The notes beneath the pieces were generated by a model that saw only the letters and a list, made by a program, of their open reading frames with translations, did not search any database and was not told the DNA's origin. Below, piece by piece: positions 17,474-58,712 of a stretch of DNA of 64,000 bases (the stretch's first letter is position 1; each line of letters opens with the position of its first letter). Source of the DNA: Rhizophagus irregularis (lineage: Eukaryota); contig NC_089433.1 in NCBI RefSeq assembly GCF_026210795.1, forward strand, positions 1,178,001-1,242,000. The letters are read 5' to 3'. Both the position numbers and the translations under genes were made by a program.

Positions 17474-20400
17474 TTAATTTTTATCTGTTTTAATATCTAA
17501 AAAATTAAATAAAAAAAATTAATTACACGTAAATAATTTGCAAATTACCTTTTTTGTATATATTACATTCCCAATGACCTCATATATTTATCATTCAAAT
17601 CTTCACTTATTAACATTTACTGTGAATCTTCACTTTCAAGAATTTTATTCAATTCTTTACTAGTAAAATTATGAAAACGACTTTTATAATATGCTTGTGG
17701 ATGAGATTTAGTAGTAAGATTATTATGCCCAATTGGTGCACTTATAAATTCCATAACATTGCATTTTAATTCAGCATCAATATCTTCAGCTTTCTTTCTA
17801 TAAGGAAGAAAAATCCACTTGATAATAATATTTAAAACTTCTTTAGAAGATGGCCTTTTTAATGGATCTTCATTCCAACACTTATTCATCAAATCTACAT
17901 AACATTGGGGAGTATTTTCAATAATTTCAGGACGTTTCCCTTTACAAATACTTAAACTAATTTGAAGATCATGTGCTCTATTATTAAATGGTGGTACTCC
18001 GGATGTAAATTCCTACATAATCATAGAAAAACTATATATATCACTAGCTGGAGTATAAGAATTGCCTTTTAAAACTTCAGGTGCCATAAATGGTATAACA
18101 CCATAAATATCATTTTTTTTCAAAGATGATTTTACAGGTTGACATAGTCTAAAATCACAAATATAAATTTTCTCCTTATTATCATCATTATGATTTAAAA
18201 TATTGCCATCATGAAAATCACAATGAATAAGATTTTGATTATGTATTGTATTAAGCCCAGAAATAATTTCATGCAACATATATAATTTTTGTTTCCAATC
18301 ATTTTTGATTATTTTTGGTAAATTTTCTCTCAAATTACCTTTGTTTGCATAATCCATTACAGCCATATAATTATCTGGACTTTTTGTAAATCCATAAAAA
18401 GAAATAATATCATATGAATCTAAACAACTTTCATGATATTTCCACTACAAAATAATAATAATATGTTGGTATAAATAAATCAATAAATTATAATTTAAAT
18501 TAAAAAATAAGTGTTATACTATCATACTTCATTTAAAAATTCATTTAAATTTTCATTAAAATTATTGCGACATTTAAGAATTACTTCTCTGTCTCCATCA
18601 TTATTTAACCAAATAGCTTTGTATATAGTACTATATTCTCCCTCATTAAGATATTCAACATTTCTAAAGTTATTATAGGAAATCCACTTTAATTTTTTTT
18701 CAATAATAAATTCATCTATAATTTTATTTCCACTTCTTCCAAATCTATAAATTTAAATAATTAAAATTAAAGTTTATTTATATTTAAATTTTATATAGAA
18801 TTTAAAATTAAAAAAATAACTAATATTAATACTTACTCTAAATTTAAGTAGGATTTAATAAATATTACCTTTTAGTTTTTGTATAATATATATATACACA
18901 AAATAACCTATAATTAATAACTTACCAACTAAAATAACAGATGTTTTTTAAATAAAGAATTCAGGTAACTATAGCTGAAATGAATATTATATAAATATAC
19001 AACAATAAAAATAATTAATAACTTACATGCTGTAATATTAAATTTATATTCTATAATAAATTACCAAATTAATTTTTTAAATAAAAAAAAATTCAATTAG
19101 TTTGAATTATGTAAATATTATGTAAATAATTAACATATATAACTTACGTTCTAAATAAATTACCAAATTAATTTTTTAAATAAAAAATTTAATTAGTTTG
19201 AATTATATGTAATTATGTAAATATGTGTAATAATAGAATTAAAGAAATAACTTATAACTTACGTTCTAAAATACACCGAATAATTTTTGAAATGAAGAAT
19301 TTAGTTAGTTTAAATTATATAATATTAGAATTAAATAAATAACTTATAACTCACGGCGGTCTAAAGTAAATTACCAAATAATTTTTTAAATAAAAAATTT
19401 AATTAGTTTAAATTATATGCAAATATTATATAAATATGTAATAATAAAATTAAATAACTTATAACTTACGTTCTAAAATAAATTACCAAATATTTTTTAA
19501 ATAAAGAATTTAGTTAGTCAATTATATGTAAATGTTATAACAGAATTAAATAAATAGCTTATAATTTACCAGCTAAAATAAATTACCAAACGGGAAGAAT
19601 TAATTTTTTTTAAAATAAAGAGTTTGGTTAGTTTAAATTATACGTGAATAGTTTATATAAGTATGTAATGAGTAAATTTATCATCTCCCATAGCGATCTC
19701 GTCTGGGCAAATTACGTAATACAAGCCAAATTAATAATGCAAGTGATATTTCGGGACGCAAATAGATATTTACAATGTTCCAGAATAGAGGGGTGTGACG
19801 CAGGTAACAAAAAGGTAGCACGTGCGACGAATAAATTATTTTACATGTAATAATAGATTAAATAAATAACTTTTAACTTAGTTGTATCATGATGATCGTG
19901 GGATATATAAAGTTTGCTTAGTAATCAAAATGAAACACGGATCCGGTTTTCCTCAGCTTTATATGGCAACAAAAAGTAGGCTTATAATAAATTACATCCT
20001 AAAATAAATCATCAAATAGTTAGTTATATGTGGCTAAATATGTAATAGTAAAATCAAATAAATAACTTATAACTTACCAGCTAAAATAAATTACCAAATA
20101 ATTTTTTAAACAAAAAGTTTTGTCATATTATATAAATATTTTTTTAAATAAAGAATTTAGTTACATGTAACACATAAATATATACTAATAATAGAATTAA
20201 ATAAATAAGAATATAGTTAGTTTAAATTATTAAATTATATAAATATATAATAATAAAAATAAATGACTTACAATCTATATTATTAAATAATTTTTTGAAT
20301 AAAGAATTTATTTAGTTTAAATTATACGTAAATATTATATAAATATGTAATAATAGAATCAATTATATAACTTATAGCTTACCAACTAAAAGGAATCACC

Positions 20401-21113
20401 AAATAATTTTTATTTAAAGAATATAGTTAGTTTCAATTATACAAATAATAGGAATATAGATGACATATAACTTACACCCTGTAGTATTATTAATTTTAAT
20501 TAGTTAGATGTAAAGTATATAATGTAAATTAAATATAATATATCACTTACAATCTAATCATTTAAATAAAGAGTATAATTAGTAAAATTATATAAAATAT
20601 TAAACGAGTATATATTATTATTTTTAAATATTGTAACTTACCATCTGTAATATAATTTATTATTGAATAGTTATTTAAGTAAAGAATTTAGTTATTAAAT
20701 ATTATGTAAAATAAAGTAAAGGATAATGATTTAAATAACTGATAACTTACTAACTATAGTATTATTAATTATTAAATGAATTATTTAGTTATAGGAATAT
20801 AACAAAAATGAGATACTTTTATTATTCAATTATAAGATAACGGACTGATAACCTATTAACTTACGAGCTAAATTATTTAAATCAATGTTAATATTACATT
20901 ATTATATAAATTATAATAATATTTAAATTATTTGCAAATAATTCTTATTTTAGTTAAATAAATATTTATATATTATATTTACCTTCAGATTCCTTGGTGC
21001 CACTTGAAACTTATTGCAATTTGATTGATTTGATTAAAAAATTTTAGAATAATTCAAATTTATATTAAATATTCATGTTATATGCTTTTACCTCTGTCGT
21101 TATTATGAGTCAT
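17474..21113 (-). pseudogene. TKL-type Ser/Thr/Tyr kinase gene with 5' micro-exon array; this copy appears disabled
   Basis: Exons: 21113-21092 (ATG), 21009-20983, 17 micro-exons, 18744-18528 (FGRSGNKIIDEFI..LKWISY..EFLNE), 18444-~17571 (WKYHE..HCDFHDGN..APEVL..SDIYSFSMIM*EF..CWNEDPLKRPS..HPQAYYKSR), 17496-17474 (DIKTDKN*). Lesions: TGG>TAG at 18013-18015, DFG-position reads DFR, TAA at 17617, last donor GT>GA at 17570. Confidence 0.88.
18745..21091 (-). repeat. Tandem array of ~70-120-bp intron/micro-exon units
   Basis: Recurrent plus-strand motif (A)ACTTAC-NNN-CT(A/G) = YAG|NNN|GTAAGT on minus; shared intron body AAATTACCAAATAATTTTTTAAATAAAGAATTTAGTTAGTTTAAATTAT with CTAAC/CTAAT branch-like motif on minus. 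Confidence 0.9.
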
Positions 21114-37984: not shown

Positions 37985-38135
37985 ATTTTTTATCCCATTC
38001 ATTAAAAATAATATAATTCATTAGCAGTTGGCCTTTTTTCAGGATCATTATCCCATCATCTTTTCATTAGTTCAACGTATTCAGGCATAGTTCCTTCTAT
38101 AATTTTGTCTAATACCCTTGCAAATATTTAAAGAA
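37985..38135 (-). pseudogene. Kinase C-lobe fragment
   Basis: KIIEGTMPEYVELMKR*WDNDPEKRPTANELYNIF. Confidence 0.7.
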
Positions 38136-41100
38136 AGATCAAAGTCATGAAGAATATTATGAAATGCTGATGCGATAGAGAACTATGGAGAACTATGCTT
38201 AAATTAAGTGAGGTGCAGTAGCCTCTAAATAAGAGGGTGGGTCCCCTAGAAATGTTAGTTAATGTATGGTCAGTAAAACTGAGTACATTATCAATATCAC
38301 AAGTGTTTTTACGTCTGCAATGCCTACAAGGTTAAGCTTAGACCTACATGGTAGACAAGGTGAAACGAAGGTACAAGGTCGTAGACCTACATGGTACCAT
38401 GATAAACACGTAAAAATAGAAATGATAAGACTATCTCCAACGCAAACGCCGCTGGTTGCTGCTACGTAAATAAGCCAAAGATGTGTCATACGTACTTTGG
38501 ATTTGACATTGGTACCTTCTCCTTAACTTTCGAATAGACTTACGAATTTTCATACGATTTTTGGTTCAGTTGTTACATTATTTTTATAAAGAGTATGGAT
38601 TCTTAACTCATATGTATTAGTTCACGGTGAGGATCAACTTGTTCGTAAATCTTTTATTCGTGTTGCTTCAGAAAATAAAAGTATATATCACGACTACCAC
38701 CACGAATTTTCTTTAAGATGTACTGTACATGATGAATCTAATTATCTATAAAAAAAAGTAATTAGAGTTAGCTAGCTAAGTGAGCGTAACGTAGAAGCTT
38801 CACAGTCTCCAAAAATTTGGTGAACAGCGGCACCTAGTCTTATGATTCATCAAGTGATCTGACAAAGACACAGCAATAGGCCATTGCTTCACACCACCAA
38901 CTTCTCTCCTAGACATCATTAAAATAGACGTGAAGCAGTATCCATTACAGATTTATAGACCTGCCAGCTCAATAGAGTTGCCGAAACTTCCCTTATCATT
39001 GCATCCACTTGTTCTATTTTAATGACCAGGTCCATTGGTTGACTTCACTTGAGTAGATTAGTCAGTCTAACGTTTCTCACCTTTCTATTCTTTTCATACT
39101 TAGGAATGAGAGAAAATGAAAAATTTATTTGCATGAAAAAAATAATTTATTTCTTTTATCTTCTTTTTTTTTCTTTCTTTTTAGGTCCATCTTCTCTCTG
39201 TCTAGTTCTTCCGTCTTCTCTTTATTAGGCCTTCTCTTAGGCCTCTTTTCTTTAAGTCTTCCTTTAGGTGTGAGAGAAAGGGGAGAACGAGAGGAGAAGG
39301 GAGAACAAGAGAAAAGGGAAGAACGAGAGGGAAAGGGGATGAGAAGGGATGGGTTGGAAGTGTGGGTTTGTGTGCAGGTGATGTTTTATCTTCTTTTTTT
39401 TCATCGTTTTTCATTAGCTCTATCTTCTCTCTTCTCTTTATTAGGTCTTCTCTTCCTTTAAATAGAGTATGGGTTTGTGTGTGGGTGGTATATTTTTGCG
39501 TTTTATTCTCCTTTTTATGTAAGAAAAAACATATAGGTGAAAAAATATATAGGTATGAGAAAATTTTATTAATGGGTAATAAAAAGAAAAAGGACTGTAT
39601 AAATATTTTTTTTTGTCGCACAAGCTTTTCGTATAAAAATTTTGTGGATGTGTAATATCAGAATATCAGATATATAATTAAAAACCACAACCTATTTACT
39701 TTTAATATTTTGTGCGTAGTTTCAATTCATCTTATGTTGAATTTTCCAATTACCCGCAATTTATTTAACTTTTAACAACCGATAATAAGTTCATAACACA
39801 AGCTATCGGATCTTATTTATACAATGTATTATAATATCATTTCGGAATTTCAATAAGTTATTAGTCATATTTCAAAATATTAAAAGTACGGTTATAAAAT
39901 AAATTTTTAGAATATATATACTCTCACATTTTGAATTAATATATTCGTATGAAATATACATTTTATTATGCTTGTACTGATACAATTCAATATCTGAGTT
40001 AATTTTCAATAAAGAATTTTATTTAGAAATAATAAATAAAAATCCAATAGTTAGAAAAAATATCATACTAACGAAATATTTTACACTCCTCTACATATCT
40101 ACATACAATGAAACTATCGTCATAAAAATTCTAGAAATGGAAACCATTATTAAGTCCGAAGTGCCATACGGGCATCCGGACATATAGTCCTTCATGGCAT
40201 GTTTTATAACACAAATTTCATATTATATGACATGAATTATTTTAACAAGGAAGGTTGGGCAAATTTGTGTGGTATAGATGAATCAAAAATTTATTTTAAT
40301 TGGATTGCTTTTGATAATGTTATTGATAAGGTTATTGAAATGTTGATGTCGTCATCCAATAATAAGTTACACGTATCATTTTCAAGTATCGATGATCAAT
40401 TTCCAGCTTCTAATGGATAGTAGATAATTAAAATTCTATAATAATGTAATTAATAAAGTTTTAATATAATAATATTATAAAAATATATTGTATTTATTAT
40501 ATATTAATATTAAGTGTTATTCATTTTTTTTGTAAATGGTTAACATATTGGGGCGTGTGCACAAAATTGATTCGTGTGCACAAAATTGATTTTTGAAGTT
40601 TTCATTCCCAGTCACCCGCATTATATCTGCTTCTTTTTCATTAATTTACGATCATTCTCATGAAGCGCCAAAAGCGTATACGCTACAGGTGTTGCTTTCT
40701 TAGTATGCAAGGTTATAGATTTTTCTAACAAAGAACTTAACAAGGAGGTTTTGGTGAGTACTGACACGTCATAAAAGAGAAACCCAAATTTAGAGTTCAT
40801 ACTTAATAATATTCTTAAAATATCAACCGTATTTCGTTGAATTAGTGTTGAATTTTTATTATTTGTGATTATTTCCTTTTTTTTACATGATAATCTTTGA
40901 AGTTAAAAGAGTTTCCAGATCTAATACATTAGAAAATTAGGAATCGATCGATCGATCGATATGATAAATCACGATTTATATACCCCTTTAAATATTGGTA
41001 ATGACTCATGAATATTAAGTTTTTTTTATCAAGATTCAAGATTTTATGAGTCATTATTTCCTTTATGAAACAATATAGTAAAAAAATCTTGATCTACATC

Positions 41101-56000: not shown

Positions 56001-58712
56001 TCATAATTCTAAATAGAACTACTTTAAGAGTATGAATATATTTGCAAAATGTTTAGAGCTTATTATTGTAATAAGAAATTGCACAAAAGTAATCTTTAGA
56101 TATACAAAATATTATAAAAGAAAAACCAAAGACCAAAATCCACAGAAAAAATGAAGAAAACAAATAAAATTAATCACTAATGATGCAGATACAGACTTTT
56201 GAAGAAATTATTAGCACCCCTAAAAAAAATTAATCATGATCATTTGGTAAAACACGTCAAAACTTTTCTTGAATCAAATGATAGCAGTAATATAGATTAT
56301 AGAGCTCAAAAAGTTGTTGACATTATACCACATGATGAGCCAACAGAAATCAATTTTAAAGGAGGGAACATCAACAAAAATTAAGGCCAAACTGAATAAT
56401 ATTAATAAAGTCACCCGCAATAGATTTCAAAGAAAAAACTATTGCAACTCACTCTGGAGTTAATTTTAAGCTCTATTATTGTCCAATTTTCTGTGCAATT
56501 CAAGCCCTTGTACAGAGACCAGAAGTGGCTAATAATTTCATTCTTAAGGAGAGCCAAACTTTTTTCATGGCAATAGAAGTGAAAGAAACATTACGAGCAC
56601 ATGAAAAAGAGAGCTTACGTGTGGACATGACAATTGATGAAAATTTTATAACAAGCAGATGTGTAATATTTTTTTTGTTTCCTTTATTAAACACCTTGTA
56701 ATACATGATTAGTTCTATACTAATAAACACAAAATTTAGTAATCATAATATTAAAATTTTATCTATCTACAGTATACAACATCTATGCTACTATACACTA
56801 TTTTTATTATGATATCTTTGCTCTATATTTTATTGTTATACTAATTGTCAGCGTTATACATGGACATAGTTGTTATAGCAGACATGGCATGTTCATAAAA
56901 TTGCCCTATAAAAAAAAAATTATGGGAAAAACATCAATAAATGAGAAAGAAACTCGGTCACGTGATCATTTTTCTGAAAAATTTTTTATAGGGTTGAATA
57001 TAAAGTTTTGAATTATCTTAAGTTTTTCAATATAAAGTCTTTATTATGATGATTAGAAATATTTTATTTATCAAAAAATAAATAAATAAATAAATACTTT
57101 CTGCAGTATTAGATAATTACGTAAAAAGAATTTTAGGAATAGGATCTCTAGTTAATATACAAAATACGGGAATTAAAAGCCCCATCTCATGGAAGGTTCA
57201 TACACATTTACTCATGATTTTAAGTGTAGACATAATTAAATAAAATATTGATTTTATTATGCCATTAATTTTAGAGGAAACTTCATTACGGTCAGGTGCA
57301 TCCTATCACGTGATTATTAAGATCAGTTGATTGGTTCTTTTTACTTATCATCATGTACATAGTCAATGATAACATGACGCGAAACAAAATTTTATTGGAA
57401 GTAATCAATGCTGAACTACTGATCATTTCGTAATGTTTATATATTTTTTTATCTTATTTTTTTTCTTACCTTTCGGACTATGACCTGCTTTTTAAAATTG
57501 CGAGGTATAAAGCGTTAACTATGAATGTAGTATGATTTTCATAAATTAAGTAAAAATGGATAAAATTGTCCAAAAAAATAAAATAAATAAATAAATTTTT
57601 CAAAAATAAAAGAAAAATGGACAGATAAACTTAGCACAATTTTATTTATTTATTTATTTATTGACGAGGATTATAGAAAATCAAAGATATAAATAGACGA
57701 GTACTGAGGAGATACAAAACAAGTAGACGCAATATAAAAGTACAATTGAATTGAAAAGTAAAAATGCGTAAAATAGTATGATCACGTGATAGGTTCAGAA
57801 TAACGATCCTGAACCCCGGGTCTGGGTTAAATCATTTTTATCACAAAAATCAATTATCACGTATATCACGTAGATCATTTTATCTATCCTGAACCCGGGT
57901 AAGCGATCCCAAACCCCGGGTCTGGTTAAATCATTTCATCACGCAAATCATTTATCACAAAAATATTTTATCACGTTATCACGTATCACGTAAATCGTAA
58001 ATCATTTTATCACGTAAATCACCTTTTGACGTTCTTACACGTAGCATTTACAGTATATTTACAATGTATTAATATGAAAGGTTATTGGTCATAACTTAAG
58101 GTTTTAAAATCAAAAATTAAATAATTTAGTTAAAAGAAACTTTTTATTGTATTAATATAAGGTTTACTATAAAGAAGTCTTTTGTTTTTGTGAATATTCG
58201 TTATAGTGAACGAAAATGGTTAGAACCGACCAATGAATTATTTATAATTTCTTTATCTGATAATAGTTCTATTGACATTTCATAGTATGATCTTGTAAAT
58301 TTAATTCCTTATACAAATAATATCAATAATAGAGTGAAATACCAAGCCTAATTTTATGATAAATCTATAATAATATACGTTCTATATAAAGTTCACTATA
58401 AGCCAAATTTACTATAACGAGCTTCACTATAACAAGCATTGACTGTATTAACTTTGAGCAATGTTTAGATATTGTTTTTGATACTATTTAAAATTATATA
58501 TTTAGTGATCTAATTTTGTCTAATTATTCTTCAAACTTATTGTGGAAAATCTAAAGCCATTAAATTTGGGCAGTTTTTCGATATCGTTATAATCAATTAT
58601 CTTAAAAAGTCCATTAAATTTGGACAATTTTTTGATATAATAATAATTAAGTTAATGTGCGAAGAATCGCCCATTAACTTAATTGACCATTAGGTATGGA
58701 CATTTATTCGTG

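Follow-up and report, generated by a model that had tools for sequence, protein, structure and literature searches.

A putative single-nucleotide exon at the end of a codon-sized micro-exon array in a Rhizophagus irregularis protein kinase gene

Between two introns of a protein kinase gene of Rhizophagus irregularis, a splice acceptor and a splice donor are separated by one adenine, which raises the question of whether a single nucleotide serves, or once served, as an exon at this locus. The gene is located on the minus strand of the 64-kb stretch of DNA that was analysed (hereafter, the window), in which it spans positions 21113 to 17617. The first-pass annotation of the window had reported that the minus strand at 18837 reads TTTAG, A, GTAAGT between introns of 88 and 92 nt. 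This is what the DNA contains (in longer form, cttaaatttag A gtaagtatt), and the two introns have these sizes, the first running from GTAAGT to TTTAG and the second from GTAAGT to TATAG. From the comparison of sequences presented here, we consider it likely, with a probability of roughly 60%, that this A is or once was a true single-nucleotide exon; the reason is that the layout is shared by related copies of the gene.

The kinase gene and its micro-exon array

The window is AT-rich, with a GC content of 0.21 to 0.33 in 2-kb steps. The host gene encodes a protein kinase (PF07714, PF00069), and all 50 of the 50 matches obtained in a protein search with the kinase exon are named Rhizophagus proteins. 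The NCBI gene model, P0001, is a "kinase-like domain-containing protein" of R. irregularis DAOM 197198 with a length of 358 aa. The features of the gene as we read them are collected in Table 1.

Table 1. Features of the kinase gene, in window coordinates and in the order of transcription.
Feature	Position	Strand	Remarks
Exon 1, 22 nt, with ATG start and donor GTAAAA	21092..21113	minus	Homology of the exon 1+2 peptide to P0020
Exon 2, 27 nt	20983..21009	minus	Message left in phase 1
Micro-exon array with 15 exons of 3 nt and one of 6 nt (19355-19360), 16 in total	18926..20867	minus	YAG and GTAAGT-like borders
Last 3-nt exon, TTG	18926..18928	minus	Split codon starts with its G
88-nt intron, phase 1, upstream of the A	18838..18925	minus	CTAA-type stretch some 35-45 nt upstream of its AG
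Putative one-base exon, A	18837..18837	minus	Middle base of a GAA codon
92-nt intron, phase 2	18745..18836	minus	Unlike the array units; common to relatives; same donor and acceptor in P0001
First kinase exon	18528..18744	minus	Begins with the third base (A) of the split codon; 100% identical to P0001
Intron in the kinase domain, 83 nt	18445..18527	minus	
Second kinase exon, to the TAA stop	17617..18444	minus	
In-frame TAG	18013..18015	minus	Trp in 13 of 13 paralogues

Upstream of the first kinase exon, 17 units of like build follow one another, the single A being the last, and each consists of a YAG acceptor, a few bases and a GTAAGT-like donor. They recur with a period of 75-115 nt, with the exception of one interval of 191 nt and one of 423 nt; the array introns measure 72-191 nt, apart from one of 423 nt that contains unrelated DNA. 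The strict pattern YAGNNNGTRAGY has 13 matches in the window versus 1.05 expected (0 of 100 shuffles), and all of them, between 18920 and 20870, are on the minus strand. This gene thus has what characterizes a codon-sized micro-exon array, namely series of 3-nt exons separated by short introns that resemble one another. Near-identical introns across unrelated genes, the mark of introner-like elements, were not found: within the 64-kb window the array intron unit occurs in this gene alone, save two weak matches, and outside the window, where it is present in 28 of the 80 related loci described below, it was seen only in the same kinase family. The 423-nt intron contains, at 19640-19990 on the minus strand, the unrelated DNA, a stretch of about 350 nt that does not resemble the array units and breaks up the array. 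No inverted repeat was found in this insert, and we therefore do not call it a transposon.

The assignment of the two exons at the 5' end is supported by homology. The peptide of exons 1 and 2 matches the N-terminus of the annotated paralogue P0020 with a score of 35 that was reached in none of 5000 shuffles; its matches to P0023 and P0017 are less clear (118 and 453 of 5000 shuffles, respectively). When these exons, the array and the A (22 + 27 + 15 x 3 + 6 + 1 nt) are joined to the kinase exon, the frame stays open for 106 codons, through the first kinase exon.

The content of these codons can be compared with canonical relatives, in which the region before the SGN motif is one exon that holds a cysteine motif followed by F-Q-Q-x-F-x-x-W-T-S-G-N (22 distinct sequences). 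If the micro-exons of the window are read in phase 1 and with the A, the residues Q, Q and F appear at the canonical distances from SGN, and 5 of 19 positions carry the majority residue. When the order of the micro-exons was permuted, the observed profile score was reached in 0.03% of 20000 trials. Permutations without a stop make up 12% of all; among 20000 of this kind, 0.235% reach the score and 0.06% reach at least five identities. At the level of the sequence, the array resembles a real motif of the family, QQxF..SGN, set out one codon at a time, and the spacing of this motif is correct only with 3n+1 bases (here, one) from the last triplet to the kinase exon.

Alternatively, the array may be a decayed tandem repeat of intron sequence within a large intron or a dead gene that was never spliced unit by unit, in which case both the frame and the motif would be a matter of luck. 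The weak donors of two units (GTAATT and GTAAAT) and the 350 nt of foreign DNA in one intron would fit such a repeat. So would the distribution of stop codons: in 182 micro-exon codons over 38 loci there are 4 stops in the kinase frame, 3 in the +1 frame and 35 in the +2 frame, so that the micro-exon text is stop-poor in two of the three frames, and this test cannot tell the kinase and +1 frames apart. On the other side, the splice sites are intact in 17 of 17 units, whereas the three bases between them vary; splicing exon 2 directly to the kinase exon would break the frame; and the permutation tests speak against luck. The related loci also bear on this alternative, as described below.

One base between two introns

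The 22 + 27 nt before the array set it in phase 1, which the 3-nt and 6-nt units do not alter, whereas the kinase exon is in phase 2, its first base being the last of a codon. One extra base is therefore needed, and the A provides it, linking homologous coding exons on either side. The first-pass annotation had proposed that the A acts as a frame adaptor in a codon split over three exons as G|A|A; the frame arithmetic and the comparison with related loci support this proposal. As for the local signals, the minus strand presents AG, one base and GT, with full splice signals and with flanking introns of workable lengths (88 and 92 nt), which is what a single-nucleotide exon comprises.

The site is reminiscent of recursive splice sites, AG|GT ratchet points at which zero bases are left. 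The resemblance consists in an acceptor with a donor directly after it, and in a long non-coding stretch that would be removed stepwise; however, one base lies between AG and GT at 18837, and the Rhizophagus units leave this one base, or three in the array, instead of a zero-length exon.

It should be noted that the motif YAGNGTRAGY has two matches in the window versus 1.03 expected, and that two or more were obtained in 34 of 100 shuffles. A one-base motif at chance frequency, which a decayed repeat would accommodate, means nothing by itself, and only its placement does. The place of the A, at the end of the array and kept in relatives, is non-random. The second match, at 56447-56456 on the minus strand (CAG A GTGAGT), is the one that chance predicts.

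The first-pass annotation had also considered that a different acceptor might restore the frame. None does among those viewed by eye: acceptors at or inside the kinase exon are all again phase 2, and acceptors within the 92-nt intron bring in AT-rich, stop-containing text. Skipping of the A, by which the TTG exon would be joined directly to the kinase exon, leads to a stop after 10 codons in the kinase exon (by eye), as had been anticipated.

Related loci and gene models

When metagenome contigs were scanned with ten aligned first-exon peptides, 80 loci were obtained, all of them AT-rich and Glomeromycota-like, which together with the window make 81 sources; the related contigs are short, and the whole 5' end is visible in the window only. 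The conservation of AG-N-GT, a check that the first-pass annotation had suggested, was then examined in these loci. Directly upstream of the kinase exon, AG-A-GTAAGT is present in L001, L002, L003 and L004, and AG-T-GTAAGT in L009, so that the putative single-nucleotide exon has the same position in five related loci; a 4-nt version, AG-AAAA-GTAAGT or AG-AAAA-GTAAGC, is present in two more (L006 and L008). The triplet TTG also precedes the one-base unit in L002, L003 and L009. In an alignment of six loci, TTTAG and GTAAGTA are invariant; among the invariant runs upstream of the exon they rank second and third in length, the remaining long one being AATATAA in the last intron, and the flanking introns of the aligned loci are only 47-61% identical to those of the window. 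Not all of these relatives are perfect: the automatic chain of L004 hits a stop, and in L009 there is an in-frame TAA after the first acceptor, so that a second acceptor is needed.

A chain of units adjoining the kinase exon was found in 38 of the 81 sources, 150 units in total, by means of a regular expression that selects for AG-N-GT and thus favours what is sought. By size, 140 of these units are of 3 nt, six of 1 nt, two of 4 nt, one of 2 nt and one of 6 nt. Units of 3n+1 length make up 8 of the 38 last units and none of the 112 inner ones, and a phase-2 acceptor is present beside all eight. In the 30 loci with a last unit of 3 nt, a heuristic placed the acceptor in phase 1 in 23 cases, in phase 2 in five and in phase 0 in two, several of these seven non-phase-1 acceptors being visibly mis-picked by the heuristic. 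The eight 3n+1 loci are kin, and they therefore represent one or two evolutionary events maintained through much divergence rather than eight. These observations weigh against a decayed repeat, since this type of array is present in 38 of the 81 sources with 140 of 150 units at exactly 3 nt, and the 3n+1 unit is always the last and always accompanied by a phase-2 acceptor. Taking both sides together, we regard the decayed repeat as unlikely.

A second alternative is that the AG before the A is incidental and that the A belongs to a longer exon ending in ...TTTAGA before GTAAGT, in which case there would be no one-base exon. This is how P0001 is built: it keeps the same last intron but codes 32 nt before the donor, in a frame that is open in the window itself, and the models P0013, P0023 and P0070 likewise read through the same stretch. 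Against this, the start ATG of P0001 sits inside the unrelated insert of about 350 nt, the homologous ATG exon is ignored, and the N-terminus is low-complexity text without a homologue. P0001 also drops 21 conserved kinase codons (18013-18075, minus strand) as an "intron" for which the in-frame TAG supplies the acceptor AG; the gene predictor seems to have used this removal to get round the stop. In the relatives, the read-through frame meets a TAA three codons upstream of the A in L001-L003 and five codons upstream in L004, with no AG between by eye, and read-through is therefore excluded in these four. Moreover, TTTAG is invariant in six loci, which the interior of an exon would not need. 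A longer exon is, in our judgement, quite improbable.

Throughout the family, the predicted N-termini are a patchwork of read-throughs or starts at an internal Met, which is what would be expected if predictors miss exons of 3 nt and 1 nt. Among 170 proteins, 46 have at least six residues before the SGN motif, and none of these 46 shows a spliced micro-exon peptide; upstream of the kinase exon they present intron text that was read through, or model guesses. The predicted starts that were inspected upstream of the kinase exon look like guesses, and only those of the P0017/P0020 type had a match against which they could be checked. If our reading holds, a very large Rhizophagus gene family thus probably has a mis-annotated start.

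The arrays can be long: up to 28 three-base exons precede the kinase exon in the 38 of 81 sources, for example in L020 (87-2845), L012 (415-2402) and L033 (5-1425), and they stand in place of the cysteine motif that the canonical relatives hold in one exon. We offer, as a tentative and somewhat doubtful possibility, that Glomeromycotan kinases may possess a living system of codon-by-codon exons, in which up to 28 three-base exons would have replaced the cysteine motif and would be spliced intron by intron. One subfamily would be locked to the kinase domain by the conserved one- or four-base exon, which would act as an obligatory key, and any subset of the codon exons could be used or skipped to vary the N-terminal peptide, while the message would be readable only with the single base.

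Two further observations concern individual relatives. In L003 (1-250), a kinase C-terminal frame runs into the array (CAT, TTG, A), which is followed by the next kinase exon, an arrangement that could represent a tandem-kinase gene or two abutting genes. The frame of this upstream kinase tail joins via the 3 + 3 + 1 bases in frame from three of four candidate GT donors, which is mild support. In L001 (50-80), a second AG-T-GTAAAT is located 20 bases past AG-A-GTAAGT; it is too near for a separate intron and is probably due to chance.

State of the window copy, origin and known one-base exons

The kinase copy of the window carries the in-frame TAG listed in Table 1. Of the 137 columns that are invariant in 13 paralogues, it departs from them at 11, among which are two Gly of the glycine loop and the Gly of DFG; in a leave-one-out control, the paralogues themselves differ at 1-12 columns. 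A premature stop and the loss of invariant residues, the features of a pseudogene, are thus both present, and because of the TAG and the lost glycine-loop and DFG residues we consider that the window copy is probably a pseudogene.

RNA was checked over 17500-19100 in two polyA runs with the same species label, about 25% of each being read. In this sample, the depth is close to zero over 18634-18903, no read covers the A, and no splice joint was seen at either of the flanking introns. Coverage of the kinase exons consists of reads that are 95-99% alike, most of them (85 of 99 and 107 of 110) partial, and that therefore originate from paralogues; all 41 of the 41 reads over 18014 in the same sample carry the paralogues' base. 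Taken with the changes in the kinase, this suggests that the pseudogene is probably silent. The premature stop and the lack of RNA cover are points in favour of the decayed repeat, and they were included when it was weighed above. A pseudogene state would leave the structural reading unweakened but would remove any present function, that of a switch included.

Two contig runs were also compared over this interval. Two X1 contigs, which are probably DNA, join 18768 to 18903 and 18769 to 18900 and so skip the A. The sides of these joints are only 20-23 letters in AT-rich text, for which reason we set them aside; they are likely a repeat artefact or a paralogue. Records of X1 and X24 that join 18937 to 19065 resemble an unspliced array unit of a paralogue.

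The on/off switch that the first-pass annotation had envisaged, in which inclusion of the base would yield the kinase and skipping would cause a frameshift and decay, is very improbable: the early stop on skipping and the alternative use of 3-bp exons in Tuber NACHT-ANK genes (in the passage of PMC9815663 citing Iotti et al. 2012) could be quoted for it, but any 3n+1 exon has the property of shifting the frame when skipped, nothing points to regulated skipping, and the question is moot in a copy in which the TAG and the loss of catalytic residues preclude a full kinase whether or not the base is included.

As to how a one-base exon would have come about, the relatives provide some indications. 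In most relatives that bear an array, the array ends further upstream, with a phase-1 acceptor before the F-Q-Q part. Annotated paralogues without an array have a first exon of 8 nt (MSK) joined to the same phase-2 acceptor, and the phase-2 intron is therefore older than the array. We propose that the array spread upstream by copying its own intron unit until it abutted this old intron. In the subgroup to which the window belongs, the phase-1 units would have reached a codon that already held the phase-2 intron, and the A would be the one base left between the last phase-1 array intron and the older phase-2 intron. Splicing is predicted to retain the A, which would then be the second base of a GAA codon. 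Each intron of about 100 nt would be removed alone, by intron definition, so that exons of 3 nt and 1 nt could survive in the mRNA. In intact paralogues the base would be needed constitutively, with a stop 10 codons into the kinase exon if it were skipped.

One-base exons had been called very rarely documented, a description that is dated, since they have been described in Arabidopsis, Fusarium and Coprinopsis. The Arabidopsis gene APC11 contains a constitutive one-base exon, with an incorrect cDNA annotation in GenBank and with evidence from GFP fusion constructs (Guo and Liu 2015, PMC4674806). It resembles our case in that a one-base exon is misannotated in the public record; unlike ours, it concerns a plant gene, has GFP-fusion proof and is an isolated exon without an array. 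In Fusarium CYP621A, splicing of a one-base exon was confirmed by SRA reads (Nelson and Syed 2026, PMC12940212). This exon is likewise fungal, consists of one base between two introns, is needed for the phases to be compatible, is missed by annotation and was argued first from related genes. However, CYP621A is an intact gene with SRA confirmation, whereas the Rhizophagus copy has a premature stop and no RNA support, and its base ends an array of 3-nt exons.

In the relevant passage on Coprinopsis cinerea, the long-read annotation lists 1-nt exons in 13 genes, 13 in all (PMC12230235), which indicates that fungal spliceosomes handle exons of this size and that the Rhizophagus case would not be unique; C. 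cinerea is a basidiomycete, its exons have long-read support, and that passage includes no codon-sized arrays. The array itself has a parallel in the NACHT-ANK genes of Tuber melanosporum, in which dozens of 3-bp exons occur in a row (Iotti et al. 2012, cited in PMC9815663). Both are runs of 3-bp exons in an expanded fungal gene family, but the Tuber genes encode NLRs in another phylum and the host here is a protein kinase and not a NACHT-ankyrin NLR, so that a like mechanism appears in a different family, and no one-base adaptor is mentioned in the citing passage. A search of the literature on microexons, mini-exons or introners in Rhizophagus, which covered neither supplements nor subscription journals, found nothing on the subject. 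Based on these comparisons, the A at 18837 is probably a further case of an already known kind of exon, in a probable pseudogene.

If our reading is true, Rhizophagus would be a third fungal lineage with a one-base exon and the first in which such an exon has been seen as the end-piece of an array of codon-sized exons. It would also show a route by which a one-base exon can originate, namely a phase-1 and a phase-2 intron in the same codon, and would bear on the smallest exon that the fungal spliceosome can handle. The biological weight of the window copy is small because the gene is probably dead, and the family-wide array system is a more interesting matter than the single A.

Two minor observations concern the same kinase family. 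At 38011-38179 on the minus strand of the window there is a fragment that resembles a C-lobe of this family, with 44-59% identity over about 30 residues and no full gene around it. In the arrays, neighbouring triplets are often identical, as in GGA GGA, ATT ATT and AGA AGA.
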